64,000 nt of DNA from an uncultured virus (IMG/VR IMGVR_UViG_3300028797_000153) (IMGVR_UViG_3300028797_000153); one strand, 5' to 3'. Shown: positions 1-17,494, counted from the stretch's first letter. Program-made: numbers and translations. Notes: a model not told the origin generated them from the sequence alone.

Positions 1-10
1 CCACCATTAT

Positions 11-85
11 GGGCCGATAGTTTAATTGGGAAAACACCCGCCCTGCAAGCGGGAGTTACGGGTTCAATTCCCGCCGTGTCCACCA
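11..85 (+). tRNA. tRNA-Ala(TGC)
   Basis: Cloverleaf, anticodon loop CC-TGC-AA (C33), G3:U70, CCA end. Confidence 0.85.
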
Positions 86-90
86 TTAAT

Positions 91-165
91 GCCCCTGTAG
101 TATAATGGCTATTACAGTTGTCTTGTAAACATCAGAAGGCCGTTCGATTCGACCCTGGGGCACCA
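91..165 (+). tRNA. tRNA-Thr(TGT)
   Basis: Cloverleaf, loop CTTGTAA, CCA. Confidence 0.9.
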
Positions 166-170
166 TATAT

Positions 171-247
171 CCGGGATTGGCTCAGTTTGGTAGAGCACTT
201 GATTTGGGATCAAGGGGTCAAAAGTTCAAATCTTTTATCTCGGGCCA
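171..247 (+). tRNA. tRNA-Pro(TGG)
   Basis: Cloverleaf, loop TTTGGGA, CCA. Confidence 0.9.
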
Positions 248-252
248 TAAAT

Positions 253-328
253 GGGGCCATAGCTCAATTGGGAGAGCGCCACATTAGCATTGTGGAGGTT
301 GCGAGATCGTCCCTCGTTGGTTCCACCA
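253..328 (+). tRNA. tRNA-Ala(AGC), A34
   Basis: Cloverleaf, loop TTAGCAT, atypical T-loop ATCGTCC, CCA. Confidence 0.85.
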
Positions 329-332
329 TTAT

Positions 333-451
333 AGAACCTGTGCTTATTTCTAATAGGGCAAGCAGGTTGTCGCTGGTTCGAATCCAGCCTTCCCAACCAT
401 TATCGGGAAGTAGCTCAGTTGGCAGAGCACCCGCAAAATATTAGCCAGGTC
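333..451 (+). ncRNA. Y-RNA-like module 1 with circularly permuted tRNA body
   Basis: ACCTG-T-GCT-TATTTCT ... AGC-CAGGT closing stem; inside: T arm, CTTCCCA-ACCA, spacer, CGGGAAG, D arm. Confidence 0.8.
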
Positions 452-456
452 AAATT

Positions 457-532
457 GCACTCTTAGCTCAGCTGGGAGAGCGACTGCTCGACGTGCAGTA
501 GGTCATAGGTCCGAGCCCTATAGAGTGCACCA
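457..532 (+). tRNA. tRNA-Val(GAC)
   Basis: Cloverleaf, loop TC-GAC-GT (atypical), CCA. Confidence 0.85.
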
Positions 533-559
533 TTAAATTCATAGAAGGAGAAAAAGATT

Positions 560-640
560 ATGATGAATTTAACCAAAAAGATTAAAAATATAAGAAAAAC
601 CAAAAGAATTGGTTTCTTTCATCATGGCTTAATTAGTTAG
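560..640 (+). CDS. Leader peptide 1 (Lys/Arg-rich, 26 aa) MMNLTKKIKNIRKTKRIGFFHHGLIS
   Basis: AAGGAG RBS; followed by terminator; 3' end complementary to terminator 5' arm. Confidence 0.75.
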   Translation: MMNLTKKIKNIRKTKRIGFFHHGLIS

Positions 641-663
641 TAAAAAACTTAAATTAATAGTTT

Positions 664-698
664 ATGCTGGGTAGTTAAGTCTGCTCAGCATTTTTATT
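664..698 (+). terminator. Attenuator terminator 1
   Basis: ATGCTGGGTAG/CTGCTCAGCAT 11-bp stem + T tract. Confidence 0.8.
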
Positions 699-703
699 AA
701 ATT

Positions 704-780
704 GCCCCCATAACTCAACTGGATAGAGTAACGGTCTTCTAAACCGTAAGTTGAAGGTCCGAGTCCTTCTGGGGGCGCCA
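704..780 (+). tRNA. tRNA-Arg(TCT)
   Basis: Cloverleaf, loop CTTCTAA, CCA. Confidence 0.92.
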
Positions 781-782
781 TT

Positions 783-841
783 AGAGCCTATACTTATTTC
801 TAGCTTCAAGCAAACAACTTTTAATTGTTCATAGTTAGGCC
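783..841 (+). ncRNA. Y-RNA-like module 2 carrying a Lys(UUU) anticodon stem-loop
   Basis: GCCTA-T-ACT-TATTTCT ... AGT-TAGGC; internal AACAA-CTTTTAA-TTGTT. Confidence 0.75.
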
Positions 842-845
842 ATAT

Positions 846-923
846 GGGTCCATAACTCAGTTGGATTAGAGTACGAAACTTTTAATTTCGGAGTCGAGAG
901 TTCGAGTCTCTCTGGACCCACCA
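846..923 (+). tRNA. tRNA-Lys(TTT)
   Basis: Cloverleaf, loop CTTTTAA, CCA. Confidence 0.92.
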
Positions 924-927
924 ATAT

Positions 928-1005
928 GCACCCTTAGCTCAGTTGGCTAGCAGCACTACACTTTTAATGTAGGGGTCCTGGGTTCGAGTCCCAGAGGGTG
1001 CACCA
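928..1005 (+). tRNA. tRNA-Lys(TTT), second divergent copy
   Basis: Cloverleaf, loop CTTTTAA, CCA. Confidence 0.9.
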
Positions 1006-1008
1006 TAT

Positions 1009-1085
1009 ACCTCCTTAACTCAACTGGTTAGAGTACTTGCCTCTTAAGCATGGAGTTCTGGGTTCGAGTCCCAGAGGAGGTACCA
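1009..1085 (+). tRNA. tRNA-Lys(CTT)
   Basis: Cloverleaf, loop CTCTTAA, CCA. Confidence 0.9.
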
Positions 1086-1100
1086 TTAAAATAAATATAT

Positions 1101-1110
1101 TGTATAATAT
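1101..1110 (+). promoter_or_regulatory. TGTATAATA -10 promoter motif (host sigma-A type); further copies near 1339, 2083, 3022, 5883, 8227, 9605, 11971, 15183, 18297, 19295, 22645, 26165, 34252, 43265
   Basis: Recurrent intergenic motif containing the TATAAT consensus, often just after a terminator and before a gene. Confidence 0.75.
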
Positions 1111-1115
1111 ATTAT

Positions 1116-1191
1116 GCCGGCTTAGCTCAGCTGTTAGAGCAACGCACTAGTAATGCGTAGGTCGGGGGTTAGAGTCCCTCAGCCGGCACCA
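1116..1191 (+). tRNA. tRNA-Thr(AGT), A34
   Basis: Cloverleaf, loop CTAGTAA, T-loop TTAGAGT, CCA. Confidence 0.88.
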
Positions 1192-1193
1192 TC

Positions 1194-1302
1194 AGAGCCC
1201 ATGCTTATTTCTTTCGGCTTCTAACCGGGTGGTCGTTGGTTCGAATCCAACCGTTCCAGTTGGAACGTAGCTCAGTGGGAGAGCACCTTATTTAGCTGGG
1301 CC
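1194..1302 (+). ncRNA. Y-RNA-like module 3: complete circularly permuted tRNA-Arg(UCU) mimic
   Basis: GCCCA-T-GCT ... AGC-TGGGC stem; order anticodon arm (CTTCTAA), T arm, loop-closed acceptor CGTTCCA/TGGAACG, D arm. Confidence 0.85.
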
Positions 1303-1355
1303 AAAACTAAAAAACTATATTATTTTAAGATTTTTCAATGTATAATATAGTGCAT

Positions 1356-1430
1356 CCTCCTGTAGCTCAACAGTTAGAGCGGGCGCCTTATAAGCGTCAT
1401 ACCTTGGTGCGACTCCAGGCAGGAGGACCA
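1356..1430 (+). tRNA. tRNA-Ile(TAT)
   Basis: Cloverleaf, loop CTTATAA, CCA. Confidence 0.85.
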
Positions 1431-1446
1431 ATAATAAAAAATATAT

Positions 1447-1460
1447 GCTAAATTAAAATG
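1447..1460 (+). promoter_or_regulatory. GCTAAATTA motif, putative phage-specific (late) promoter; also at 2114, 14832, 29248, 34777, 41389, 47883, 47979, 51501, 55207, 61929
   Basis: 11 exact intergenic copies seen, mostly at starts of virion-gene operons. Confidence 0.7.
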
Positions 1461-1475
1461 CGAGGAGAGAACAAA

Positions 1476-1562
1476 ATGATGATTAGAAGAAGTTATCAAT
1501 TGAGCCAATTATCAGGTTTATGTGGTCATAACCAATTTTTGTTTTACTCCAATCGCGATTAA
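1476..1562 (+). CDS. Leader peptide 2 (Gln/Leu codons, 28 aa) MMIRRSYQLSQLSGLCGHNQFLFYSNRD
   Basis: GAGGAG RBS; TCCAATCGC (1548-1556) complementary to terminator arm GCGATTGGA. Confidence 0.75.
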   Translation: MMIRRSYQLSQLSGLCGHNQFLFYSNRD

Positions 1563-1594
1563 ATAGAATAAGCTTAAAGTATAATATATAATTT

Positions 1595-1633
1595 AATGAG
1601 CAGCGATTGGAAAAATTGTTGCTCATTTTATTT
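1595..1633 (+). terminator. Attenuator terminator 2
   Basis: AATGAGCAGCGATT/AATTGTTGCTCATT 14-bp stem + T-rich tail. Confidence 0.8.
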
Positions 1634-1659
1634 ACAAAGCAAAAATTCTATGGTATAAT
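1631..1659 (+). promoter_or_regulatory. Sigma-A-type promoter
   Basis: TTTACA-17 nt-TATAAT with upstream TG. Confidence 0.7.
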
Positions 1660-1668
1660 ATTAAATAC

Positions 1669-1743
1669 AGGGAAGTAGCCAAGTGGTAAGGCATGAGACT
1701 TTGACTCTCACATTCGAAGGTTCGACCCCTTCCTTCCCTGCCA
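1669..1743 (+). tRNA. tRNA-Gln(TTG)
   Basis: Cloverleaf, loop CTTTGAC, CCA. Confidence 0.92.
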
Positions 1744-1745
1744 AT

Positions 1746-1830
1746 GCTCTGGTGGTGGAACTGGCATACACATGGCACTTAAAATGCCACGCCGTAAGGA
1801 TTGAGAGTTCAAATCTCTCCCGGAGCACCA
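1746..1830 (+). tRNA. tRNA-Leu(TAA)
   Basis: Cloverleaf with long variable arm, loop CTTAAAA. Confidence 0.92.
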
Positions 1831-1834
1831 TTAT

Positions 1835-1911
1835 GCTCCTCTAGCCCAACTGGCAGAGGCAATAAGCTCAAAACTTATTCAGTCTGAGTTCGAATCTCAG
1901 GGGGAGTACCA
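1835..1911 (+). tRNA. tRNA-Leu(CAA), short variable loop
   Basis: Cloverleaf, loop CTCAAAA, CCA. Confidence 0.85.
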
Positions 1912-1913
1912 TA

Positions 1914-2035
1914 AGAGCCTATGCTTATTTCTTAAGGACTGAAAATCCGCGTGTAGGTGGTTCAACTCCATCCCTTCCCGCCAAATATTTGGGAAGTGTA
2001 GCTCACCGGTAGAGCAGCGAACTATTAGCTAGGCC
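1914..2035 (+). ncRNA. Y-RNA-like module 4: circularly permuted tRNA-Phe(GAA) mimic
   Basis: GCCTA-T-GCT ... AGC-TAGGC; GGA-CTGAAAA-TCC, T arm, CTTCCC-GCCA, spacer, GGGAAG, D arm. Confidence 0.85.
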
Positions 2036-2152
2036 AAAAAATAAAAAATTTCAGAAATATATTTACAATTAATTAAAAATGTTGTATAATATATGTGAGC
2101 GTTAAAAATATACGCTAAATTATAATGGCGCAAAGCTAGGAAGGAAAAGATT

Positions 2153-2269
2153 ATGCAAAAACTATCTATCATGTCCCTTAATCGTGAACATAGTGATTCA
2201 GTATATTTCGGTTGCTGGAATATTTTTGCTACCATCGGATCATCTAGTTTTGAGCAGGTTAATGAATAA
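2153..2269 (+). CDS. Leader peptide 3 (38 aa) MQKLSIMSLNREHSDSVYFGCWNIFATIGSSSFEQVNE
   Basis: AGGAAGGA RBS; 2235-2250 pairs 16 bp with 2297-2312 (terminator 5' arm). Confidence 0.75.
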   Translation: MQKLSIMSLNREHSDSVYFGCWNIFATIGSSSFEQVNE

Positions 2270-2301
2270 ATAAATTAAAAACATTAACAAAAAATGAAAT
2301 T

Positions 2302-2332
2302 AGGTGGTCTGAATAAGATCACCTTTTATTTT
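2302..2332 (+). terminator. Attenuator terminator 3
   Basis: AGGTGGTCT/AGATCACCT stem + TTTATTTT. Confidence 0.8.
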
Positions 2333-2335
2333 ACT

Positions 2336-2421
2336 GGGTAGGTGGTAGAGTGGTCAATTACACCTGACTGTAAATCAGGCGCCACAGGCTTACGGTGGTT
2401 CGAATCCATCCCTGCCCACCA
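2336..2421 (+). tRNA. tRNA-Tyr(GTA)
   Basis: Cloverleaf, long variable arm, loop CTGTAAA. Confidence 0.92.
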
Positions 2422-2426
2422 GATAT

Positions 2427-2502
2427 GTGGACGTGAATCTGACGGTTTAGATGCTAGTCTGTGAAACTAGATTACTGAGTTCAACTCTCAGACATCCACC
2501 CA
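2427..2502 (+). tRNA. tRNA-His(GTG) with encoded G-1
   Basis: Loop CTGTGAA; G2427 opposite discriminator C. Confidence 0.85.
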
Positions 2503-2506
2503 AAAT

Positions 2507-2596
2507 GGTCTATTAGCTCAGTCTGGTAGAGCGGCCGACCAAAGTGTCGGTGACAAACAGCGCGCGAGTGCATTGGTTCAAATCCAATATAGACCA
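2507..2596 (+). tRNA. Atypical tRNA-like gene (8-nt anticodon loop CCAAAGTG, long unpaired variable region, no encoded CCA)
   Basis: GGTCTAT/ATAGACC acceptor, normal D and T arms. Confidence 0.65.
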
Positions 2597-2604
2597 TCGT
2601 ATAT

Positions 2605-2679
2605 GCTCCCATAGACAAGCGGTTAAGTCATGCGCCTTTCACGCGTATATCGCCGGTTCGAATCCGACTGGGAGTACCA
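2605..2679 (+). tRNA. tRNA-Glu(TTC)
   Basis: Cloverleaf, loop CTTTCAC. Confidence 0.9.
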
Positions 2680-2683
2680 AAAT

Positions 2684-2760
2684 GGGTCATTAGCTCAGCT
2701 GGTGGTAGCGACTGACTGTTAATCAGTAGGCCGAAGGTTCAAGTCCTTCATGACCCGCCA
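2684..2760 (+). tRNA. tRNA-Asn(GTT)
   Basis: Cloverleaf, loop CTGTTAA. Confidence 0.92.
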
Positions 2761-2764
2761 ATTT

Positions 2765-2838
2765 CCAGGCATAACTCAATGGTAGAGTGCACGACTGATA
2801 ATCGTGATATCTTAGTTCAATTCTAGGTGCCTGGACCA
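2765..2838 (+). tRNA. tRNA-Ile(GAT)
   Basis: Cloverleaf, loop CTGATAA. Confidence 0.9.
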
Positions 2839-2841
2839 TAT

Positions 2842-2915
2842 AGGAGTTTGGTATATTGGCCGTGCCTTGGTCTCCAAAACCAATGAAGTGAGTTCGATTC
2901 TTACAACTCCTGCCA
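2842..2915 (+). tRNA. tRNA-Trp(CCA)
   Basis: Cloverleaf, loop CTCCAAA. Confidence 0.88.
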
Positions 2916-2917
2916 AT

Positions 2918-2996
2918 GGCCCTGTAGCTCAGCCGTGGTGAGAGCACTGGTCTGAAAAACCAGGTGTCGGCGGTTCGACTCCGCCTGGGGCCACCA
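2918..2996 (+). tRNA. tRNA-Phe(GAA)
   Basis: Cloverleaf, loop CTGAAAA. Confidence 0.92.
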
Positions 2997-3046
2997 AATA
3001 GTTAATTTATTATAGATTAACTGTATAATATTATGTATTGCAACAT

Positions 3047-3123
3047 TGCGGGGAAGTGTAACGGTTTGCATCTGAGGCTCATAACCTCAGGGTAGTGAGG
3101 TTCAACTCCCACCCCCGCGACCA
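3047..3123 (+). tRNA. tRNA-Met(CAT), initiator-like
   Basis: TGCGGGG/CCCCGCG acceptor with weak 1:72 pair, loop CTCATAA. Confidence 0.82.
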
Positions 3124-3199
3124 GGACCGTTGGTGTAGCGGTTTACATGTCACACTGTCACTGTGAAGATGACGGGTTCGACTCCCGTACGGTCCGCCA
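3124..3199 (+). tRNA. tRNA-Asp(GTC)
   Basis: Cloverleaf, loop CTGTCAC. Confidence 0.92.
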
Positions 3200-3202
3200 C
3201 TT

Positions 3203-3287
3203 AGAGCCTATACTTATTTCTTAATGGTTATAGAAGGTTCGATTCCTTCACCGCCCTCTAACCCAGGGCAGTGATATTAGTTAGGCC
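3203..3287 (+). ncRNA. Y-RNA-like module 5 (T arm + acceptor-like hairpin)
   Basis: GCCTA-T-ACT ... AGT-TAGGC; GAAGG-TTCGATT-CCTTC then GCCCT/AGGGC. Confidence 0.75.
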
Positions 3288-3349
3288 AAAAAATTATTAT
3301 TTATAAAGGAGATTAAGTTTATGTAAGTATTAAAAAGGAGGGCATAACA

Positions 3350-3601
3350 ATGAGTTATAGCCGCAAACAATTTGATAAACATAAACTTAAAAAACTTGCC
3401 CATGATAGCTGTAATGGCTGGAAAGGCGGAGCTTATTATGACAGAAGAAAAACCTGTTATAGACGCTACTGGAAAAGTCATGGACATACTTCAAGATATA
3501 CTTATTATAAAAAGTATTATCACAAAAGAATGCGAAGATTTATTAACAAGTATGGTTGGTATTCTAAAAAGGAATTTGATATAATCTGGACTTGTTGGTA
3601 A
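3350..3601 (+). CDS. Small basic hypothetical protein
   Basis: AGGAGG RBS, 83 aa, K/R/Y-rich. Confidence 0.7.
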   Translation: MSYSRKQFDKHKLKKLAHDSCNGWKGGAYYDRRKTCYRRYWKSHGHTSRYTYYKKYYHKRMRRFINKYGWYSKKEFDIIWTCW

Positions 3602-3608
3602 AATAATT

Positions 3609-3684
3609 AGCTGGGTGGCCAAGTGGTTAAGGCACAAAGTTCATACCTTTGGGATCGTCAGTTCAAATCTGACCCCAGCTACCA
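3609..3684 (+). tRNA. tRNA-Met(CAT) (elongator Met or Ile2)
   Basis: Cloverleaf, loop TTCATAC. Confidence 0.82.
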
Positions 3685-3686
3685 TC

Positions 3687-3748
3687 AGAGCCGATACTTA
3701 TTTCTGTCTAGAGACAATTTCCTGCCACGAAATCCATATAGTTCGGCC
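3687..3748 (+). ncRNA. Y-RNA-like module 6 carrying a Gly(GCC) anticodon stem-loop
   Basis: GCCGA-T-ACT ... AGT-TCGGC; internal ATTTC-CTGCCAC-GAAAT. Confidence 0.75.
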
Positions 3749-3756
3749 AATAATAT

Positions 3757-3830
3757 GGCTTCTTAGTTTAAAAGGAAAACTGGATCCTTACAAGATCAGG
3801 ACGGTGGAGCGTTACCATCAGAGGCCACCA
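3757..3830 (+). tRNA. tRNA-Val(TAC)
   Basis: Loop CTTACAA, atypical T-loop AGCGTTA, CCA. Confidence 0.8.
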
Positions 3831-3835
3831 AATAT

Positions 3836-3910
3836 GCGGACGTAGGACAATGGTTAGTCCACTAGCTTGCCATGCTAGATATACGGGTTCGATTCCCGCC
3901 GTCCGCTCCA
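3836..3910 (+). tRNA. tRNA-Gly(GCC)
   Basis: Cloverleaf, loop TTGCCAT. Confidence 0.92.
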
Positions 3911-3915
3911 CCGAA

Positions 3916-4049
3916 GTGACTCTTCCTTATATCGTAAAGAATAAGCGGGTATTGCTTACCTGGGTCCAAAGCAACGGTTAAGCTGGCATTACCGAGAGTG
4001 CCAGAGAAGGTGTCTGTGGTTCACCTGAGGAGTTAGTCACCAAACCACA
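3916..4049 (+). ncRNA. Unidentified multibranch RNA with 3' pseudoknot
   Basis: GTGAC/GTCAC closure, four internal hairpins, loop TGTGGTT pairs with 3' AACCACA. Confidence 0.6.
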
Positions 4050-4053
4050 ATAC

Positions 4054-4128
4054 GCGGGTATCGTCCAATGGTTAGGGCCTCTGCCTTCCAAGCAGAAGAT
4101 ACCGGTTCGACTCCGGCTACCCGCTCCA
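4054..4128 (+). tRNA. tRNA-Gly(TCC)
   Basis: Cloverleaf, loop CTTCCAA. Confidence 0.92.
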
Positions 4129-4155
4129 TACTAAAAATAATTAAGGAGAAAAAGT

Positions 4156-4251
4156 ATGAAAACAATGAATTCACGAAGTCTAAGTTGTGGTCGCTGTAGT
4201 AGCAGTTGTTTTCATTCACTCAATTTTCTCCCAGTAGCTCAATCGGATTAG
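4156..4251 (+). CDS. Leader peptide 4 (Ser/Cys/Arg-rich, 31 aa) MKTMNSRSLSCGRCSSSCFHSLNFLPVAQSD, overlapping tRNA-Arg(ACG)
   Basis: AAGGAG RBS with the same AGGAGAAAAAG context as leader 1. Confidence 0.65.
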   Translation: MKTMNSRSLSCGRCSSSCFHSLNFLPVAQSD

Positions 4252-4305
4252 AGCATAACACTACGAATGTTAAGGTTGCAGGTTCAAGTCCTACCTGGGA
4301 GGCCA
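4228..4305 (+). tRNA. tRNA-Arg(ACG)
   Basis: Cloverleaf, loop CTACGAA. Confidence 0.92.
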
Positions 4306-4306
4306 A

Positions 4307-4381
4307 GCTTTGGTAGCCAAGTGGTTAAGGCCTCGGTCTGCAACACCGATATCGCGGGTTCAAATCCCACCCAAAGCTCCA
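4307..4381 (+). tRNA. tRNA-Cys(GCA)
   Basis: Cloverleaf, loop CTGCAAC. Confidence 0.92.
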
Positions 4382-4386
4382 TATTT

Positions 4387-4474
4387 GGAGGCATGGAGTA
4401 ATGGTATCTCAATACCCTGCTAAGGTATCCATCGGGCAACTGATGTCCGCGTTCGAATCGCGGTGCCTCCGCCA
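4387..4474 (+). tRNA. tRNA-Ser(GCT)
   Basis: Long variable arm, loop CTGCTAA. Confidence 0.92.
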
Positions 4475-4489
4475 AATGAAAGGATTTTT

Positions 4490-4795
4490 ATGAAAGTGTA
4501 TTTTATAGCTACAGCAAATAATATTAAAAAAGATAAGCTCGGTTGGATAGACTGGGGCAAATCACACAGAGTTGTTGGCTTTTTTGATAATTTAGAAGAT
4601 GCTAAAAAGGCTGTTGAAGATAATTGGTGTGATCTATATGAAAATGGCTACTATAAATATGCTATTATAGAAGAAAGGGAAGATGGTCTATACTCTACTT
4701 GTGATAATCCTATTTTCTATAAGTGGGAAGATGGTGGCTATAAAAAAATAAAAAGGCCAAGAGCAACTTATGGATTCTGTAATTTCACAATTTAA
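4490..4795 (+). CDS. Hypothetical phage protein
   Basis: GAAAGGA RBS before ATG 4490; the track start lies inside the tRNA. Confidence 0.8.
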   Translation: MKVYFIATANNIKKDKLGWIDWGKSHRVVGFFDNLEDAKKAVEDNWCDLYENGYYKYAIIEEREDGLYSTCDNPIFYKWEDGGYKKIKRPRATYGFCNFTI

Positions 4796-4796
4796 T

Positions 4797-4880
4797 ACCC
4801 AGATGGTGGAATGGTAGACACCCGTGGCTTAGAACCACGTGCCGAAAGGCGTGCAGGTTCAAATCCTGTTCTGGGTACCA
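4797..4880 (+). tRNA. tRNA-Leu(TAG)
   Basis: Long variable arm, loop CTTAGAA. Confidence 0.92.
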
Positions 4881-4900
4881 ATATAATAAAGGACTAATTT

Positions 4901-5653
4901 ATGTATTTTAAAATTCCAGAAGCTTTTATTAGAAACAGACGTGAATTATTTGCATTAATGGTTGCAACAGTTTCATCTATTCATGTAATTCAGCAACAAA
5001 TAGATACAACTAATTTAACTATTTCAGAAATGCAAGAATTTTTAGCTAAAAAAGGCTTTATAAAAGTTGTTCCAGATAAACCTACTACATTACAAGAGCT
5101 AATTAATAAGCTAGATATCGCAAGTACAGCTTTTGTTAAATTAGCAAATAATAAATATATTGGAATAGTTGCAAATACATATTATTATACAGAAAACTTA
5201 GACAGTATAAAAGTTGCTGAATATTATTTAAATACTGAATATGGCCACAATCTTAAATATAAATGTATAAAATGTGGAAATTGTTGTCGTGTATATGGCT
5301 CAAATGGTGGCGTAATATTTTCTGAAGAGGATATTAACAAAATAGAACAAAATACACCATATACAATTCGTGATAAAGTTGTATTGGTATCTAATAAAAG
5401 TAATAAAAAACTATATCATCTTAGCCTTAAAAATAACCAATGTGAGTTCTTAGATAAAGATAATAGTTGTAAGCTAATTAATACATTATCTGTTAATTGC
5501 CAACTACCTGTAATTTGTTATTTATTTAGAGCTGGTCGTGGTGCAGGTATTAATTTCTTTAGCTGCCCAGGTATTGGATTGCCTGATGGTGATAACTGGG
5601 ATATATTAGATGTATTTAATTGGATTGATAAATATTGTAAAGAATATCAATAA
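4901..5653 (+). CDS. YkgJ/CxxCxxCC cysteine-cluster protein
   Basis: KCIKCGNCC ... CEFLDKDNSC ... PVICYLF motifs. Confidence 0.7.
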   Translation: MYFKIPEAFIRNRRELFALMVATVSSIHVIQQQIDTTNLTISEMQEFLAKKGFIKVVPDKPTTLQELINKLDIASTAFVKLANNKYIGIVANTYYYTENLDSIKVAEYYLNTEYGHNLKYKCIKCGNCCRVYGSNGGVIFSEEDINKIEQNTPYTIRDKVVLVSNKSNKKLYHLSLKNNQCEFLDKDNSCKLINTLSVNCQLPVICYLFRAGRGAGINFFSCPGIGLPDGDNWDILDVFNWIDKYCKEYQ

Positions 5654-5654
5654 T

Positions 5655-5737
5655 GCGCAAGTGGTGGAATTGGTATACACGCAGGTCTAAGAAGCCTGTG
5701 CTTCGGCATAAGAGTTCAAGTCTCTTCTTGCGCACCA
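5655..5737 (+). tRNA. tRNA-Leu(AAG), A34
   Basis: Long variable arm, loop CTAAGAA. Confidence 0.9.
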
Positions 5738-5740
5738 TAT

Positions 5741-5827
5741 GGAGGGTTGTGATAATTGGTAGTCGGGCTGTCTTGAAAACAGTTGGGTCGCAAGGCCTTT
5801 AGGGTTCGAGTCCCTAACCCTCCGCCA
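5741..5827 (+). tRNA. tRNA-Ser(TGA)
   Basis: Long variable arm, loop CTTGAAA. Confidence 0.92.
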
Positions 5828-5908
5828 TATAAAAGTTTATTAAAAAATCATATTAAAAGTATGGTTTTTTTCTTTTTATAACTGTATAATATTACGAGGT
5901 GTTTTATT

Positions 5909-6355: not shown

Positions 6356-7291
6356 ATGGTTAAAGATGCATTAGGCGATAGAATGAAAGAATACTACGAA
6401 GGAGTTACTAAAACTAAGCTTGTTCGTAGAATGCCTGTTATTATTAGATTAGATGGTTGCCATTTCCATACTTTTACGCGTGGTTTTAGAAAACCTTTTG
6501 ATGAACTTCTTAATAAAACTATGCAAGCAACTATGAAATATCTTTGTGAAAACATCCAGGGAGTAGTTTTAGGATATACACAATCAGATGAAATTACTTT
6601 AATTTTGGTTGATTATGCTAAACTTGAAACATCTGCCTGGTTTGATTATGAAATCCAAAAGATTGTTTCAGTTAGTGCTGCTCTTGCTACATATGCTTTT
6701 AATAAATATTTTAATGAATTTTATCTTTATCAACTTGCTGAAAAATGTGGGGAAACAGATGAATTTGATTTAGTTTATGATAGAGCTCGTAAAAAAGGTG
6801 CTTACTTTGATAGCCGTGCTTTTAATATTCCGAAAGAAGAAGTTACTAATTGTGTTTTATGGCGACAACTTGATGCTGAAAGAAACTCAGTTAACTCATT
6901 AGGGCAAAGCTTATTCCCACATAAAGCTCTTCAAGGATTAAGTTGTAAAGCCCTTAAAGCTAAAATTGAAGAAGAAAAAGGCATTGTTTGGGGCAATCTT
7001 CCTACCGAACAAAAACGTGGAACTTGTTGCATTAAAAACAGGACTTATACTCTTCCTGATGGCCAAGTAGTTAAAGAAAAAGAATATATTAATTATAAAG
7101 GCCACTTTGGAACTTTCTATTTTGATGGTGATGGTTATTATTTCTTTTATAGGGACAATGAATCATATGAAGTCAAAAGCATTAAGCTTGAAGTAAAAGA
7201 GCATGCTGAATGGGTTATTGATAAAGATATTCCAAGATTTATTGATAGCGGCCGTGAATATATTGAAAAACTTATTAATGTAGGAGAATAA
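6356..7291 (+). CDS. Thg1-like (tRNA-His guanylyltransferase / 3'-5' polymerase) protein
   Basis: IIRLDGCHFHTFT, GYTQSDEI, FDSRAF, WRQLDAERNS motifs. Confidence 0.92.
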   Translation: MVKDALGDRMKEYYEGVTKTKLVRRMPVIIRLDGCHFHTFTRGFRKPFDELLNKTMQATMKYLCENIQGVVLGYTQSDEITLILVDYAKLETSAWFDYEIQKIVSVSAALATYAFNKYFNEFYLYQLAEKCGETDEFDLVYDRARKKGAYFDSRAFNIPKEEVTNCVLWRQLDAERNSVNSLGQSLFPHKALQGLSCKALKAKIEEEKGIVWGNLPTEQKRGTCCIKNRTYTLPDGQVVKEKEYINYKGHFGTFYFDGDGYYFFYRDNESYEVKSIKLEVKEHAEWVIDKDIPRFIDSGREYIEKLINVGE

Positions 7292-7521: not shown

Positions 7522-8121
7522 ATGGCATTATTAAAACATTTACATACAGTTGGTAAACATAGAAGATACGTTAGAAGTATGTGCTTTAAAATGGGTATTC
7601 CATGGCAAGGCTTAGTTCATGATCTTTCCAAATATTCAATTAAAGAATTAAGTATAGCAAAATATTACACAGGAACAAAGAGCCCACATGCAGCTTGTCG
7701 TGAATTAAAGGGATATAGCCCAAGCTGGATGCATCATTATCATAAAAATAAACATCATTGGCAATTTTGGCTTGATATAGAAGATTGGCCAAATAATGTA
7801 GTTCCAGTTAAAATGCCTTATAAATATGTTATTGAAAGCTTCTGTGATATGGTTGGAGCAAGTAAAGCATATAATCCAAAAAGTTGGAATGAAAGTATGC
7901 CTTGGGATTATTATGAGCAAAAATGTGCAGGTAATCGCCTCATGCACAAAGAATCTGAATACTTGCTTGCGAAACTACTTTGGAATCTTAAAATCCACGG
8001 ACAAAAGAAATTTATAAAGTGGTATAAAGGCGCTAAAAAATATCTAAAAGAAAATTATATAAATGGCTCATTAGAATTTAATGATAATGAAACTTCTATC
8101 TACTTTGAAATAAGAGCTTAA
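7522..8121 (+). CDS. DUF5662-like HD-fold protein
   Basis: HDLSKYS, WMHHYHKNKHHW, MPYKYVIESFCD motifs. Confidence 0.75.
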   Translation: MALLKHLHTVGKHRRYVRSMCFKMGIPWQGLVHDLSKYSIKELSIAKYYTGTKSPHAACRELKGYSPSWMHHYHKNKHHWQFWLDIEDWPNNVVPVKMPYKYVIESFCDMVGASKAYNPKSWNESMPWDYYEQKCAGNRLMHKESEYLLAKLLWNLKIHGQKKFIKWYKGAKKYLKENYINGSLEFNDNETSIYFEIRA

Positions 8122-8251: not shown

Positions 8252-9094
8252 ATGGAAAAAGCTATTGTAGAATTTGGAAAAAGAATGGATGCTGCTGAAG
8301 ATAAGGCTTTACTTGTTGATTATGCTGAAGGCGCAACAAGAGTTTTAGATTTAGGAGCTGGTACTGGTAAGATTTCACGTGATATTGCCGAAAAATGGGG
8401 GGCTCATTGTGATGCAGTTGATATTCAGTTTAAAGATAATTGTCAAAATACAGATAAAGTTACTTACTATGGTATGAGTATTATAGACTTTCTTAGAACA
8501 TATAGTAATAAAAAATATGATTGTATTATTTTGTCTGCTATTTTACATGAATTAGATGCTCACACACTTAACTTTTTGAAAGAATATCTACCAATTATGA
8601 TGATGAAGAACTGTAGAATTCTTATTCGTGAGCCATTTTATGACAGTGCTTTAGGCCCAGTTCAAAAAGAAAATGCAGAAAAGTTTATTGACTTAGTTTC
8701 TAAAAATGTTTCTGCTGATAAAGCCTTTGAATTTTATTTTGCTACAAAGTTAAGTTTAGGTTGCAGTTTATTTAGCCGCCAGATTAACTTTGCTTCATCA
8801 GTAGATTGGGCTAACCTTGCATTTACTATTTCATATGGTGAACAAAGCTGGGAACGTGAAAAACATGAGTTTAGATATGCTTATAGTTTAGACTGGTGTA
8901 AAGATTTCTTCAATTTTACTAATAAAGAATTCCATGATAGTGTAGTTAGACCATTTACAGGTTTTCAAGTTTATCCAGTTTTAGATAGAACATATAAACA
9001 ACATTTTATTAATGTAGGTATTCCAGGTGAAGCTTTTGATTTAATTCAATATACTGGAATGATTGTAATTATTGACTATTCTAAAGGGGAATAA
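8252..9094 (+). CDS. Class I SAM-dependent methyltransferase
   Basis: VLDLGAGTG, YDCIILSAILHE. Confidence 0.85.
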   Translation: MEKAIVEFGKRMDAAEDKALLVDYAEGATRVLDLGAGTGKISRDIAEKWGAHCDAVDIQFKDNCQNTDKVTYYGMSIIDFLRTYSNKKYDCIILSAILHELDAHTLNFLKEYLPIMMMKNCRILIREPFYDSALGPVQKENAEKFIDLVSKNVSADKAFEFYFATKLSLGCSLFSRQINFASSVDWANLAFTISYGEQSWEREKHEFRYAYSLDWCKDFFNFTNKEFHDSVVRPFTGFQVYPVLDRTYKQHFINVGIPGEAFDLIQYTGMIVIIDYSKGE

Positions 9095-9536: not shown

Positions 9537-9618
9537 TTTTTTTTGAAAAATTTTAAAATTTATTAGCTAAAATAATAATCAGCAGGAAAAAATAAATTTT
9601 CTGCTGTATAATATATAG

Positions 9619-10780: not shown

Positions 10781-10782
10781 AT

Positions 10783-11380: not shown

Positions 11381-11475
11381 CTAATAAAATATAATAGGAT
11401 TTATATCCATGGCGATAAATCGTAAATCCTGGTTGCCTTCAAGTCCGAAATGACGTTAAACTATGGAGGTATAGA

Positions 11476-11736: not shown

Positions 11737-11936
11737 AGATTCTAAATAATATTTACCTGAGCAGTACGACTTATGCCTGAAACCTGATATAAAGGAATCT
11801 TGGGTATGTCAGAAACAACTGACTATGACATAAGCAAAAAGGGCGGAAACTATACTTATTTCTTCAGTGCTTTAGAACAAATGATCTAAAAAGAAATAGG
11901 CTGCAAGTTAGTTAGTTCAAATATTATTTAGAATCT
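11737..11936 (+). ncRNA. ~200 nt RNA closed by a perfect 18-bp stem, containing Y-RNA-like module 7 (11845-11918)
   Basis: AGATTCTAAATAATATTT/AAATATTATTTAGAATCT; AACTA-T-ACT-TATTTCT ... AGT-TAGTT. Confidence 0.65.
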
Positions 11937-12012
11937 TTTTTATTTTTTTATTTACTTTTAAAATTTTTATTGTATAATATTAATGTGGATGAAAACTGAA
12001 AGGATCCACAAT

Positions 12013-12067
12013 AGAGCCGATACTTATTTCTGGTTATTTATAAGAATGTGTTAAAAACAGTTCGGCC
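12013..12067 (+). ncRNA. Y-RNA-like module 8 in the leader of the TerD-fusion gene
   Basis: GCCGA-T-ACT-TATTTCT ... AGT-TCGGC. Confidence 0.75.
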
Positions 12068-12147: not shown

Positions 12148-14121
12148 ATGACAAACATTCAAAAAATCTTAATTTCTAGACATTACTTACTTGCAGCTCC
12201 AATTGCTGAAGAAGATAAAGTAAAAGTTGCATATTATAATGCATATCTTTTAGCTAACTTTGGTATTGTAGTTGATAAGCCACAACGTTTAAGCGATATT
12301 AGCGTTAAAGAAATTGCTGATGTTTATAAGCTTAGTGTTCCAGCATCTTTCTACAAAAACCCACAAGATACTAAATATTTTTCTTGTGCAGAATTACTTA
12401 TTGAACAATTAGTTTCTTACTTTTTAGTTGAAACTGGCACAGGTATCTATAATAGAGTCGAGATCTTTGAAAAGAATCTCCCTGAATATAAGCAAGGTGA
12501 TGAACTTAAACTTCGTGAGTTCAAGATTTTAACTGCAGAAGAAGCTGATGTTGTTTTAGCTGATATTGCTAAAGCATACTGTGCTTATACTCGCCCATGG
12601 GCTCTTGATGAAGAAGAAGAATTTATCTGGTTATTTGAACATGGTTATTATCAAAACTTTGAAGTCGCATGTGGTGATAATGCTATTAAATTACTTGAAA
12701 AAGATGCTTCTTTTGCACGCTTTTTATTCAAAAAAGATTTAGTTAAGATTTCAGTTACTCGCTGCGGTGAAAAATCTAAACTTATGCTTGATGCTAAAAC
12801 AGCTGACCTTATTAGAGCAGCTATTCCTTATGTTAAGGATTGCCCAATGTCTAAAAAGCAAGCTAAGTATTTTAATACTTTAATTGCTAAAGTTGGTGCA
12901 CAAGGCAAAGTTAAAGAAGCCTCTAATGCTCGTTCACCATATAAAGCAGCTCAAGAAGCCCTTAATAAAGGTGATGTTTTAGGTGCAGCTAAGATTTATG
13001 CAGCTAATGGTTCTCTTTTAGAAAGAAACTTAAAGATGCTTATTTCAAGAGCTGACCCACAAACAGCTTTAGATATTTTAGGCTTACTTAAAGCTAAAAA
13101 TCCACTTGTTCTTTTCCAAATTATGTCCACATTAATGGCTGATAATGGGGAAGCTCGTACCTTTACATTTACTAAAAATAGATTAGTCAAACATCATATT
13201 GAAACTGAATATGAACATACTTGGCGTAAATCTAAGTTAAATGATGCCACAAGAAAGCTTATTCATGATGCTTGCCTTGTTAAAATTGAAGAGGGCTATC
13301 GTGCCTTTGATTCTTTAGGCAAAGTCTATATTTCACCAGATTTCTTCAAGATTGGTGTCCCAGTTAATACATCAGCTACTGGTAAAGGTATTGATGTATT
13401 ACCAACAAGCTCTAGACTTCCACTTCCAACAAATAAAGTTCGTACTTTCGTTTATTGGAAAGATGCATTTGATATTGATGCTTCCTTAATTTTTGTTGAT
13501 AATGTTGGCAAATTAAGCTACATGTATTTCGGCAACTATTCTGGAAAACCATTTGGTCATGATGTCCTATTTTCTGGCGATAATAGAAATCATACTGGCT
13601 CTGAATATTATGATATTGATGTTGAAGCTCTTCATAGAAGAGGCATTAGATATGTAATTCAAGCTTTCCATGGCTTCTGCTCTAATTTAAACCAAGGCGA
13701 AATTTATTGTGGTTATCAAAATAAAGAAAACTTTAATACACAAGCCTGGGACCCAAAAAACATTGAATTAAAAATTCATGTTAAGGGTGATACAAGAGCA
13801 TTTATGGCTTTTGCCTTAGATTTAGCAACTAATGAAGTTGTTATCTTAAATCAACTTTTAGACGAAGAATTAAGAGTTGTTAACGGTAAGAACTTTGCTC
13901 CAATTGCTAAGTTACTTGACCCAGCTCAACTTGAATTAAATGCTGGCTTAATTGCTTCATTTAGAGCAAGTGAAGTTGTTGCTACACCAGAAGAAGCTGA
14001 TGTTGTATTTGATGCTAATTTCAAACCAGAAATAGCTGAAGATGGCACTGCAATTCAAAAAGTTGTTAGACCATTTGAAGTTGAAAAGATTGTTGCATTA
14101 GCTAATGGTGCAAATATTTAA
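12148..14121 (+). CDS. Helical N-terminal region + TerD domain protein; probable Ro/TROVE(Rot)-TerD RNA-binding protein
   Basis: C-terminal YWKDAFDIDAS, FSGD, SEYYDID TerD-like motifs; long helical N-terminus; flanked by Y-like RNAs. Confidence 0.6.
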   Translation: MTNIQKILISRHYLLAAPIAEEDKVKVAYYNAYLLANFGIVVDKPQRLSDISVKEIADVYKLSVPASFYKNPQDTKYFSCAELLIEQLVSYFLVETGTGIYNRVEIFEKNLPEYKQGDELKLREFKILTAEEADVVLADIAKAYCAYTRPWALDEEEEFIWLFEHGYYQNFEVACGDNAIKLLEKDASFARFLFKKDLVKISVTRCGEKSKLMLDAKTADLIRAAIPYVKDCPMSKKQAKYFNTLIAKVGAQGKVKEASNARSPYKAAQEALNKGDVLGAAKIYAANGSLLERNLKMLISRADPQTALDILGLLKAKNPLVLFQIMSTLMADNGEARTFTFTKNRLVKHHIETEYEHTWRKSKLNDATRKLIHDACLVKIEEGYRAFDSLGKVYISPDFFKIGVPVNTSATGKGIDVLPTSSRLPLPTNKVRTFVYWKDAFDIDASLIFVDNVGKLSYMYFGNYSGKPFGHDVLFSGDNRNHTGSEYYDIDVEALHRRGIRYVIQAFHGFCSNLNQGEIYCGYQNKENFNTQAWDPKNIELKIHVKGDTRAFMAFALDLATNEVVILNQLLDEELRVVNGKNFAPIAKLLDPAQLELNAGLIASFRASEVVATPEEADVVFDANFKPEIAEDGTAIQKVVRPFEVEKIVALANGANI

Positions 14122-15223: not shown

Positions 15224-17494
15224 ATGCGTACCTTATTAATTACACGTGGTGCACCTGGTGCCGGAAAATCAACTTGGGTTAAAAATAATCATTTAGAAGA
15301 TTATACTCTTTGCCCAGATGATATTCGTATTATGTGTGCTTCCAGAGATCTTCAAGCTGATGGCCATACTGCTATTGCAAGAAATAATGAAGTTGAAAAA
15401 GAAACCTGGAAGATTATTTTTCAATTACTTGAATATAGAATGCAACGTGGTGAATTAACAGTATTGGATGCAACTGCCTCTAAAACAAAAGATATTCAAC
15501 AATATAAAGAATTAGCTGAACAATATAGATATAGAACCTATGTTGTTGATTTTACTGATGTTCCTCTTGAAACTTGCTTAAAACAAAATAGAATGCGCCC
15601 AGAAATGAAATGGGTTCCAGAAGAAAGCATTAAAAATATTTATGCTCGTTTTGCTACACAGCCAGTTCCAAGCAGAGTTGATGTAATTAAACCGGATGAA
15701 TTAGATAAAATCTTAGAAAAACCTATAGATTTATCTCAATATAGAAAAGTTGTTTTTATTGGCGATATTCATGGCTGTTATGATACTTTGATGCAATATC
15801 CTGATTTCAAAGAAGGACTTAAAGATGATACAGCATATATCTTTTTAGGCGATTTCGTGGACCGTGGCAATCAAAATGCTGAAGTCATGAAGTTTATCTA
15901 TTCTATTATGAATAAGCCAAATGTATGCTTGTTAGAAGGCAATCATGAACGCTGGCTTAGAGACTATGGAAATAATGTTCCAGCCAAATCAAGAGAGTTT
16001 GAAGACAAAACAAAACCACAACTTATTGCAGGCGGTTTTGACCAAAAAATGGCTAGAATATTCTATAGAAAAGTTCGTCAAATGTCTCACTTTATGTTTA
16101 ATGGTATAGAAGTTTTAGCTTGCCATGCAGGTATTCCACATATGAATAATAATTTAGTTTATTTACCAACAGAAGCTTTTATTCATGGTGTTGGAACATA
16201 TAATGACTACCAAACAATTGCTGAAACTTGGATGACTGAAACTAAAGAAAATCAATATTTAATTCATGGCCATAGAAATACACATGAAGATCCAACTGAA
16301 ATAGCTGATAGAGTTTATAATCTTGAAGGCAAAGTTGAATTTGGTGGTAATTTAAGAATTGTTGAACTTACTTCCGATACATTCAATGGTTGGGCTTTTG
16401 GTCACCCTGAAGTTGGTTTAGTTACTGGAACACACTGGAATATAGTTGAATTACATAACTGCCAACCAATTACTGAGGATGCTATTATTGAAGAAAGAAA
16501 AGTTGATACAGTTGAAGAAGCTATTGATTATCTTAGATTAAATAAATTTGTCCAAGAAAAACAATTAGGTAATGGAGTTTCTTCTTTCAATTTTACCCGT
16601 GAAGCTTTCTATGATGCTAACTGGAATAAACAAACTATTTTAGCACGTGGCTTATTCTTAGATACTGAAAATAAAAAGATTATGGCACGCTCATATGAAA
16701 AGTTTTTTAGAATTAATGAAGTTCATGAAACTGAAATGATTGCACTTAAAAATAGACTTCAATTTCCAGTCCAAGCCTATGTAAAAGAAAATGGATTTTT
16801 AGCAATAGTATCTTATGATTATAAAAATGATGATTTATTTATTGCTTCTAAGTCCACAAATAAAGGCGATTATGTTGAATATATTAAAGCTCAACTTGAA
16901 CCTTATAAAGAAAAATTATTAGACCTTTTAAGAACAAATTATAATGATGGTATTCCATGTTCAGCAGTATTTGAATGTGTTGATATTGAACATGACCCAC
17001 ACATTATTAAGTATCCAAAAAGCAAAATAGTATTATTAGATATTATTGAAAATACTTTAAATTATAAAGCTAGAACTTATTACTCATTAAAAGAGGCTGC
17101 TGCTTATATTGGCTGCCCGGTTAAAGAATTAGCATTTGAAATAAAAGATTATGATGAATTTAGAAATCTTTATAATGAAGCCCAAGATGAAGAATATAAG
17201 TATAATGGTGAATATATTGAGGGTTTCGTTTTTGTGGATGCTTCTGGTTTTATGACAAAATTAAAAACAGGTTATTATAATTTCTGGAAACATATGAGGG
17301 GCGTTGCTGATCAAACTCTTAGATGTGGAAATTATGGTAGAACTGGCGCACTTCAATCAGCCCAAGCTAATTATTTCTATGGTTTCTGTAGACAATTATT
17401 TAGAAATGATCGTGATAAAGAAACAAAATCTTATCCATATAAAACAGATATTATTTCGCTTCGTGAAAAGTATCTAGCTGAGTTTAGAAAATAA
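15224..17494 (+). CDS. Polynucleotide kinase + metallophosphoesterase + RNA ligase fusion (RNA end healing and sealing)
   Basis: GAPGAGKS P-loop, DAT; GDIHG/GDFVDRG/GNHE; ARSYEKFF, KENGFL, EGFV, KLK ligase motifs. Confidence 0.9.
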   Translation: MRTLLITRGAPGAGKSTWVKNNHLEDYTLCPDDIRIMCASRDLQADGHTAIARNNEVEKETWKIIFQLLEYRMQRGELTVLDATASKTKDIQQYKELAEQYRYRTYVVDFTDVPLETCLKQNRMRPEMKWVPEESIKNIYARFATQPVPSRVDVIKPDELDKILEKPIDLSQYRKVVFIGDIHGCYDTLMQYPDFKEGLKDDTAYIFLGDFVDRGNQNAEVMKFIYSIMNKPNVCLLEGNHERWLRDYGNNVPAKSREFEDKTKPQLIAGGFDQKMARIFYRKVRQMSHFMFNGIEVLACHAGIPHMNNNLVYLPTEAFIHGVGTYNDYQTIAETWMTETKENQYLIHGHRNTHEDPTEIADRVYNLEGKVEFGGNLRIVELTSDTFNGWAFGHPEVGLVTGTHWNIVELHNCQPITEDAIIEERKVDTVEEAIDYLRLNKFVQEKQLGNGVSSFNFTREAFYDANWNKQTILARGLFLDTENKKIMARSYEKFFRINEVHETEMIALKNRLQFPVQAYVKENGFLAIVSYDYKNDDLFIASKSTNKGDYVEYIKAQLEPYKEKLLDLLRTNYNDGIPCSAVFECVDIEHDPHIIKYPKSKIVLLDIIENTLNYKARTYYSLKEAAAYIGCPVKELAFEIKDYDEFRNLYNEAQDEEYKYNGEYIEGFVFVDASGFMTKLKTGYYNFWKHMRGVADQTLRCGNYGRTGALQSAQANYFYGFCRQLFRNDRDKETKSYPYKTDIISLREKYLAEFRK

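Follow-up and report, generated by a model that had tools for sequence, protein, structure and literature searches.

Y RNAs of the YrlA kind (Rfam RF02553) are the closest described counterparts of the RNAs considered here. As portions of Chen et al. 2014 (PMC4201824) describe them, they consist of an end-to-end terminal helix set on a permuted tRNA-like body (T arm, sealed acceptor, D arm), with a Ro60-contact motif, GNCGAAN0-1G, near the 5' end and the Ro60-binding helix in place of the anticodon loop; the gene lies within ~4 kb of the Ro60 gene, on the same strand. The same portions record that YrlA RNAs carry tRNA-type modifications and are substrates of tRNA-recognising enzymes, among which DusA and TruB are named. 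They also describe a single RNA of one lineage, Yrn1 of Deinococcus radiodurans, as a Y RNA with a potential anticodon arm (5-base-pair (bp) stem, 6-nucleotide (nt) loop) that is bound by Ro60 and tethered to PNPase. The DNA analysed here is a 64,000-nt stretch from an uncultured virus (IMGVR_UViG_3300028797_000153), called the window throughout. It contains a set of small RNA modules in which a constant helix, the handle, encloses a variable cargo made up in many cases of tRNA parts, and one of these modules precedes the gene of a 657-residue protein, P657. The architecture of the RNAs, their conservation, the identity of their anticodon loops and the linkage of their genes to that of P657 are established in the sequence.

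The handle and its modules

The window is part of a rumen T4-like phage (portal Gp20 and capsid Gp23 families are matched). Bovine-gut sequencing runs contain DNA nearly identical to it; for bases 300-4000 all matches among sequence runs are bovine-gut DNA contigs and no RNA dataset is listed. A near-identity search of phage records with the window returned two short tRNA stretches only. Bases 1-5830 are a tRNA array of 30 genes by ARAGORN and 32 by Rfam at gathering level, and at that level Rfam finds nothing but tRNAs over the window. Modules of the array start 3-5 nt past the CCA of a tRNA, and three of them (M3, M4 and M5) form the ends of tRNA sub-operons, directly before promoter-like sites.

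The exact word CTTATTTCT is present in six copies in the array and in two near 11.9-12.0 kilobases (kb), and every copy is part of GCCNR-T-RCT-TATTTCT. An exactly complementary AGY-YNGGC downstream of this 5' motif defines seven window modules; an eighth, A/U-rich and read by eye (11848-11917), is probable. The handle is thus an 8-bp helix with one bulged U, GCCNR-U-RCU / AGY-YNGGC, enclosing the cargo and flanked by single-stranded UAUUUCU on the 5' side and CAAA on the 3' side. The modules are:

336..450, plus strand: M1, handle ACCUG-U-GCU / AGC-CAGGU; permuted tRNA-like body without an anticodon loop
786..840, plus strand: M2, handle, 3-bp mini hairpin GCU-UCA-AGC and an anticodon-like arm AACAA-CUUUUAA-UUGUU at 813-829
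1197..1301, plus strand: M3, sealed mimic of an entire tRNA, full anticodon arm included; loop CUUCUAA at 1218-1224 (Arg UCU)
1917..2034, plus strand: M4, sealed tRNA mimic of the M3 design; loop CUGAAAA at 1939-1945 (Phe GAA)
3206..3286, plus strand: M5, handle, T arm GAAGG-UUCGAUU-CCUUC and a 5-bp hairpin with loop CUAACCC; no anticodon arm
3690..3747, plus strand: M6, handle, mini hairpin GUC-UAGA-GAC, an A, and an arm AUUUC-CUGCCAC-GAAAU at 3717-3733 (GCC triplet)
11848..11917, plus strand: M8, probable module with A/U-rich handle AACUA-U-ACU / AGU-UAGUU, more weakly supported than the others
12016..12066, plus strand: M7, with its own promoter-like site at 11951-11978; cargo not anticodon-like

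The handle is not peculiar to this phage. Searching viral contigs for the 5' motif gave 59 loci with 82 occurrences, and the complementary 3' strand lies no more than 280 nt away in 81 of the 82. At least 143 further loci came from a metagenome scan, and at least 207 unique modules have been catalogued from related phage and metagenome DNA. Four of the eight handle pairs occur as 2-4 pair types (67 modules). Related phage records of 220-237 kb, rated 95-100% complete, have 3-9 handle motifs each, clustered and strand-biased, against 0-1 for a reversed-pattern control. A scan of cellular genomes serves as a negative control and not as a host call: matches are near the chance number (by our own arithmetic, ~140 for the handle pattern in 596 gigabases), and among the matches listed 14 of 122 have the complementary strand. 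About six of these 14 resemble true modules, on contigs binned to metagenome-assembled genomes of Bacteroidales and Lachnospiraceae.

Anticodon arms and other cargos

A first-pass annotation of this DNA had described anticodon stem-loops in four modules, and all four hairpins are present at their places: AACAA 813-817, CTTTTAA 818-824 and TTGTT 825-829 in M2; TTCGG 1213-1217, CTTCTAA 1218-1224 and CCGGG 1225-1229 in M3; GGA 1936-1938, CTGAAAA 1939-1945 and TCC 1946-1948 in M4; ATTTC 3717-3721, CTGCCAC 3722-3728 and GAAAT 3729-3733 in M6. All four loops have 7 nt and begin with CU, and each of the four modules has the features of an anticodon arm (a stem of ~5 bp, Y32, U33, variable 34-36 and a purine at 37). 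M2, M3 and M4 carry the very anticodon loops of the window's own tRNA-Lys(UUU), tRNA-Arg(UCU) and tRNA-Phe(GAA); the M6 loop differs from that of tRNA-Gly(GCC), TTGCCAT. M2 and M6 had been taken to contain no other tRNA parts. T arm and acceptor stem are indeed missing from both, and both go without a tRNA call by ARAGORN or Rfam, but neither is entirely bare: a 3-bp hairpin and a purine precede the arm. The order is that of D arm, N26 and anticodon arm (the first hairpin of relatives reads GCUC-NNNN-GAGC), so that the cargo, with its 5-bp stem and 7-nt loop, corresponds to the lower half of a tRNA. The minimum-energy fold of M2 is exactly the proposed structure.

The arms so displayed cannot act in translation, as had been claimed for M2 and M6. 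Acceptor stems are sealed or absent and no module receives an ARAGORN or Rfam tRNA call; the sole overlap with the Rfam tRNA family (RF00005) is a truncated 19.4-bit match within M3. None of M2 to M6 can be charged or decode.

Support for the hairpins is comparative and does not come from single-sequence energy; because single-sequence folding is weak, a stem-and-loop motif search with shuffles was used together with counts of covariation. Among the 44 unique short cargos of the viral set, 26 have a 7-nt YUNNNRN loop on a stem of at least 4 bp (the strict anticodon test), compared with 2.4 +/- 1.5 in 500 shuffles (maximum 9). The larger strict-handle set gives 43 of 98 short cargos, compared with 4.2 +/- 1.9 in 300 shuffles (maximum 10). 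The stem is of 5 bp in 24 of these 43 cargos, and 31 of the 43 carry a loop that is found unchanged as the anticodon loop of a real tRNA (the reference being 84 distinct loops of 368 ARAGORN tRNAs from the collected loci and the window). Loop flanks are constant (CU or UU on one side; AA, AC or GA on the other) and the middle triplet varies: UUU 19, UGG 13, GCA 5, UCC 3, and others, Lys-UUU being the commonest cargo. Fixed flanks around a variable triplet are the conservation pattern of real anticodon loops. The triplet differs even between close relatives: in M6 it is GCC, but in the nearest relative, whose first hairpin is the same, it is GCA. The first-pass annotation had staked its proposal on the loops staying anticodon-like among homologues, and the format is kept, by loop statistics and by covariation alike.

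The covariation evidence comes from two alignments. In 11 two-hairpin modules (alignment A2) the handle is 100% paired; all five pairs of the second hairpin show compensatory changes, with 92.7% of cells paired. The covariation score was reached by none of 500 shuffles, and controls in which the pairing was slid drop to 15-53% paired. In nine tRNA-like modules (alignment A3) 29 pairs are 97.3% paired and 15 of them covary. The anticodon stem of these tRNA-like modules is complete, but its 5' strand is split: positions 30-31 stand directly before the loop and positions 27-29 after the D arm (two local and three remote pairs), and the handle exits between positions 29 and 30. In M3, likewise, the handle branches off the 5' strand of the anticodon stem. 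This 2 + 3 design is found in 25 of 65 long cargos, a count from which nine false matches were removed by hand (eight were T loops and the ninth, TTAGCAG in L027, was doubtful).

Cargos fall into several classes: an anticodon arm alone; a mini D hairpin, purine and anticodon arm (M2, M6); a whole tRNA body with sealed acceptor end and full anticodon arm (M3, M4); a YrlA-type body without an anticodon arm (M1, in the order T arm, acceptor 3' strand ending in ACCA, UUAU, acceptor 5' strand, D arm); and a T arm followed by a hairpin with loop CYAAYCC (M5, and 14 of the 65 long cargos), which resembles the top half of a tRNA. The positional counterpart of M5 is L060:13100-13176, which likewise follows tRNA-Asp. 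In this T-arm class (3206-3286 and 13 relatives) a 7-nt loop of the form CYAAYCC (CUAACCC, CCAAUCC, CUAAUCC) often closes the second hairpin; the loop is not anticodon-like, because position 37 is C. The core of M8, UAUUUCUU, pairs with AAGAAAUA within the cargo, and M8 resembles L060:5496-5594.

A few rare arrangements also occur among the catalogued modules. At two loci (L004, minus strand, and L038:301-483) modules are nested: a complete short module with a UUUGGGU loop interrupts the acceptor loop of a second, tRNA-like module immediately past ...CACCA, and cleavage of the outer RNA may yield two fragments and a free CCA end. At two more (L016:301-410 and L027, minus strand, 334-449) an unpermuted tRNA-like sequence lies entire within the handle, and its anticodon loop is odd. 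Recurrent cargo motifs without anticodon character (AAUAUGGUAUU, AUGAAGAUC and AAAGGG loops) are found in L040, L110, L147, L192, L195 and others.

P657 as candidate partner, and the comparison with YrlA

The first-pass annotation had supposed that the modules are tethered to a protein. They probably do work with one, given that one protein gene is always preceded by a module; the likely candidate is P657 and not Ro60.

12148..14121, plus strand: P657, 657 amino acids; helical N-terminal part (repeat-like at 262-388) and C-terminal TerD-fold domain at 427-586

M7 ends 82 nt upstream of the P657 open reading frame (ORF), and by eye a long hairpin and T run lie between the two. The P657 gene follows the end of a module at a distance of 40-160 nt in each of the 19 viral loci found to encode it, and a module precedes it in the window too (the 19 represent ~12 distinct lineages, some loci being duplicates; 18 of the modules were found by script and that of L078, in which the bulge is G, by eye). 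The cargo of this module differs by lineage and the handle is constant. Because of this association P657 is likely, from gene order, to be the partner of the handle.

What kind of protein P657 is can be said in outline. One search found 597 relatives at E <= 0.001 and another 1506 cluster representatives; among module-bearing phages the protein is 52-65% identical. Neither P657 nor 24 distant relatives have a Pfam hit, PHROGs offers a family of unknown function only, tblastn against phage records gives 'hypothetical' matches only (22-32% identical), and the ESM Atlas returns TerD-like names only, with no structure. The AlphaFold model (mean predicted local distance difference test score, pLDDT, 76; predicted template modelling score, pTM, 0.56) is helical in its N-terminal part and folds as TerD at the C terminus. 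Residues 427-586 align with TerD structures at VIA-align Z 15.4 (2qz7) and 13.7 (2kxt) and Foldseek E 2e-4 to 1e-3, and Pfam TerD is matched weakly in 4 of 33 family members. Set beside the fold of Ro60, a ring of HEAT-type repeats, residues 262-388 of the full-length model match generic helical repeats at Z 6-7.6.

None of the searches made with P657 points to Ro60. The TROVE family (PF05731) is matched by none of 33 P657 family members at E <= 1, and hhalign of the P657 alignment (A1) with a phage TROVE protein gives a probability of 0.2%. PDB sequences, searched also by profile, gave no hit and no Ro60; Ro60 is likewise missing from the Foldseek and VIA-align lists for the P657 model, in which the N-terminal domain was not searched alone.

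The RNAs themselves have a clear likeness to YrlA. M3 scores 41.7 bits with the YrlA model (E 7.8e-7, full model), M1 37.7 (partial, 365-431) and M4 22.7 (partial), all below the gathering score of 69; YrlA is the sole non-tRNA family that aligns to M3 along the full model, and Rfam misplaces the outer helix. M2, M5 and M6 have no YrlA hit at E <= 5 and M7 none at E <= 1. The permuted tRNA-like domain is present in M1, M3 and M4, is partly present in M5 (the T arm alone) and is lacking in M2, M6 and M7. Three of the four marks of YrlA membership are missing, namely an adequate Rfam score, the Ro60 motif and a nearby TROVE gene: GNCGAAN0-1G is found in none of the eight window modules and in none of the 207 unique modules (first 25 nt), and no TROVE gene is among the 49 window ORFs. 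PF05731 was not found in five related phage records (95-100% complete) in a search that the control genomes matched.

These data bear on the possibility that the modules are ordinary YrlA-kind Y RNAs, with host Ro60 (Rsr) bound to the handle and a second host protein, recruited by the cargo, redirecting host RNA decay. Their terminal helix and permuted tRNA body follow the YrlA plan (PMC4201824, in part), to which the Rfam matches of M1, M3 and M4 conform, and some gut Bacteroidota have Ro60 (the control genome of Bacteroides thetaiotaomicron matched TROVE). Against this stand the low Rfam scores, the uniform lack of the contact motif, the lack of a TROVE gene among the window ORFs and in the five phage records, and the constancy of P657 as neighbour, and we consider host Ro60 quite improbable as the explanation. 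The comparison suggests Y-RNA-type tRNA mimics with a new handle and a non-Ro60 candidate partner.

The modules are Y-RNA-like scaffolds in layout, as had been proposed; covariation, loop statistics and the module-preceded protein gene bear this out. With YrlA they share, besides the terminal helix on a permuted tRNA-like body, a gene that adjoins that of a putative partner, and a presence in phages (PMC4201824, in part). Unlike YrlA, they have a different handle sequence and a TerD-fold neighbour, occur in several copies per genome within tRNA arrays and in many cases keep a full anticodon arm, or little else. Like Yrn1 they can carry an anticodon arm on a Y-type RNA; in contrast with its 6-nt loop, theirs have 7 nt, are often identical to real anticodon loops and offer many triplets. 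The family would thus broaden the known Y-RNA-like tRNA mimics by a new handle, a candidate partner other than Ro60 and cargos that keep the anticodon arm that YrlA lacks.

The linkage to P657 also helps to judge the proposal that handles are processing or stability signals punctuating tRNA operon transcripts (3'-end hairpins or nuclease entry sites) and that cargos are tRNA-gene debris without a role. The close spacing behind tRNA CCA ends and the position of M3, M4 and M5 at sub-operon ends would suit such signals, and M1, in which ...ACCA-UUAU- lies between the tRNA halves, looks as if derived from two adjacent genes. On the other hand, 31 of 43 loops identical to those of working tRNAs would not survive in debris, compensatory changes preserve the anticodon stems and the loop format is kept across phages whose P657 proteins are 52-65% identical, and modules with their own promoter adjoin P657 without a nearby tRNA. 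(At three of the P657 loci with a module, L076, L077 and L078, no tRNA lies within 6 kb.) Punctuation is accordingly very improbable.

A possible role as bait or alarm

tRNA cutting is a major theme of bacterial immunity (PrrC, PARIS, retron effectors, OLD, Septu, Schlafen and Cas12a3 are instances). tRNA-Lys-UUU is cut by PrrC and by PARIS (portions of PMC2610378 and PMC11464382), T5 tRNA-Lys acts against PARIS (PMC11464382, in part), and phage tRNA anticodon-loop variants are directed against tRNA-cutting host defences (PMC10264068, in part). The phage answers described in portions of these three reports are repair enzymes and resistant or replacement tRNAs. Two genes for enzymes of tRNA repair lie in the window:

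6356..7291, plus strand: Thg1-like 3'-5' nucleotidyltransferase, tRNA 5'-end repair (Pfam Thg1, E 2.7e-30)
15224..17494, plus strand: polynucleotide kinase-phosphatase fused to a T4 Rnl1-type RNA ligase (Pnkp-RNA ligase), a tRNA repair enzyme (Pfam AAA_33, Metallophos and RNA_lig_T4_1)

The first-pass annotation had proposed bait that titrates, traps or senses host tRNA-cleaving defences or modification enzymes. We infer, from the module that always precedes its gene, that P657 would bind the handle, and from these surroundings that the resulting particle would serve as a decoy or sensor. The P657-RNA particle would present tRNA look-alike parts to proteins that recognise tRNA, most likely host nucleases that cut anticodon arms, and would either soak up these nucleases or report their attack to the phage's tRNA repair enzymes. 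That P657-handle particles show non-decoding tRNA parts to tRNA-directed enzymes in this way, as bait or alarm, is the explanation we favour, tentatively and at somewhat less than even confidence. It fits because the Pnkp-RNA ligase and Thg1 genes are nearby, because Lys-UUU is the commonest cargo and because tRNA-targeting defences are published. The modules share with the phage tRNAs that resist defences a place in tRNA arrays, the importance of anticodon loops and the prominence of Lys-UUU (PMC11464382 and PMC10264068, in part); those tRNAs differ in being complete, decoding and able to restore translation, and the modules, since they can neither be charged nor decode, could serve only as bait, sponge or signal.

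A good many observations weigh against this decoy or sensor role, or against parts of it. As to the RNAs, single-sequence folding energies of whole modules fall short of significance (z -0.16 to -2.2), the stems rich in A and U have little stability (many cargos alone fold to 0 kcal/mol), and the minimum-energy fold of M6 pairs the conserved core AUUUC with GAAAU, the 3' strand of the arm, in preference to forming the arm. Not every cargo is a copy of an anticodon arm, because the strict test excludes 55 of 98 short cargos, some of which are altogether different hairpins and some of which have loops with A33 (CAUUUAA, UAUGGGA), and loops starting with CA occur in only 1 of 167 tRNAs examined. 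The triplets displayed include Ser, Gly and Cys types, which have no obvious link to known anticodon nucleases. As to the protein, P657 has no recognisable RNA-binding domain, and the TerD chains that it matches were deposited (by PDB title) as tellurite-resistance or calcium-binding proteins and not as RNA-binding ones. A 230-kb phage record rated 100% complete (G007, with loci L031/L080) has one canonical module in its tRNA array and no detectable P657; the other three of its four handle-motif hits are chance matches. (Record G008 likewise gave no P657.) Lastly, there are few conserved neighbours beyond P657 itself: of the 19 loci, three have Pnkp-ligase close to P657 and one has Thg1.

A more ambitious form of the proposal is that P657 holds interchangeable small RNAs by their common handle as a library of decoys, a broad countermeasure to, or alarm for, nucleases that cut tRNA at different places. 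This is possible and, on balance, doubtful. Each RNA of such a library would show a different sub-domain of tRNA: an anticodon arm (Lys, Pro, Cys, Arg, Phe, Asn and others), the half with D arm and anticodon, the T-arm half or the entire sealed body. Change of triplet between close relatives, as for M6, is what would be expected of an arms race under such a proposal. The abundant loops centred on UGG (UUUGGGA, UAUGGGA) may not mimic tRNA-Pro at all and could instead base-pair with the CCA end of tRNA, in the manner of T-box RNAs.

The particles might, alternatively, engage other enzymes that handle tRNA (anticodon-loop modification enzymes, synthetases, RNase P or the ribosome) and retune host translation in place of countering immunity. 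The range of cargos (anticodon arm, T arm with hairpin, whole body) corresponds to the features that many tRNA enzymes recognise, the gene of a methyltransferase (8252-9094) lies near by, and the modification of YrlA RNAs by tRNA-type enzymes, DusA and TruB among them, offers a precedent (PMC4201824, in part). This explanation is nevertheless unlikely: the neighbouring genes are for repair and not modification enzymes, and Ser-type loops (CUGGAAA, CUGCUAA, UUUGAAA) are displayed, although the anticodon is not read by seryl-tRNA synthetase.

If the decoy or sensor role is correct, phages would have, in isolated tRNA parts presented on a handle that binds protein, a third way of answering tRNA cutting, and the family would be a natural example of modular RNA display. 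The family is large (at least 207 unique modules) and easily tested in vitro. A literature search of titles and abstract openings found no description of it, which does not prove that none exists.

The array contains other unusual elements. Three short ORFs of ~27-38 codons (541-700, 1476-1627 and 2153-2324) lie between tRNA sub-operons, each directly upstream of the next tRNA and each followed by a terminator-like hairpin (664-691, 1595-1627 and 2302-2324); they could be leader peptides or small genes. A 93-nt tRNA-like gene at 2506-2598 (Rfam tRNA, 48.4 bits) is given a two-base 'anticodon' (aa) by ARAGORN and seems to have an insertion within or near the anticodon arm. Four Rfam tRNA matches without an ARAGORN call (11-82, 2428-2499, 3047-3120 and 3757-3827; 40.7-41.7 bits) are aberrant or divergent tRNA-like genes of the array.

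Between the array and P657 are genes for a protein with a CxxCxxCC metal-binding domain (4901-5653), a DUF5662 protein (7522-8121) and the class I methyltransferase referred to above (8252-9094). Further on, at 9560-11450 on the plus strand, ~1.8 kb without an ORF of more than 55 amino acids sits behind a promoter-like site of the TGTATAAT type. Its G+C content is 35-45%, compared with ~30% around it. It has no Rfam match at E <= 1 and none in phage records, and a single 189-nt match (73% identity) to a metagenome locus, L158; it may be a large structured RNA.

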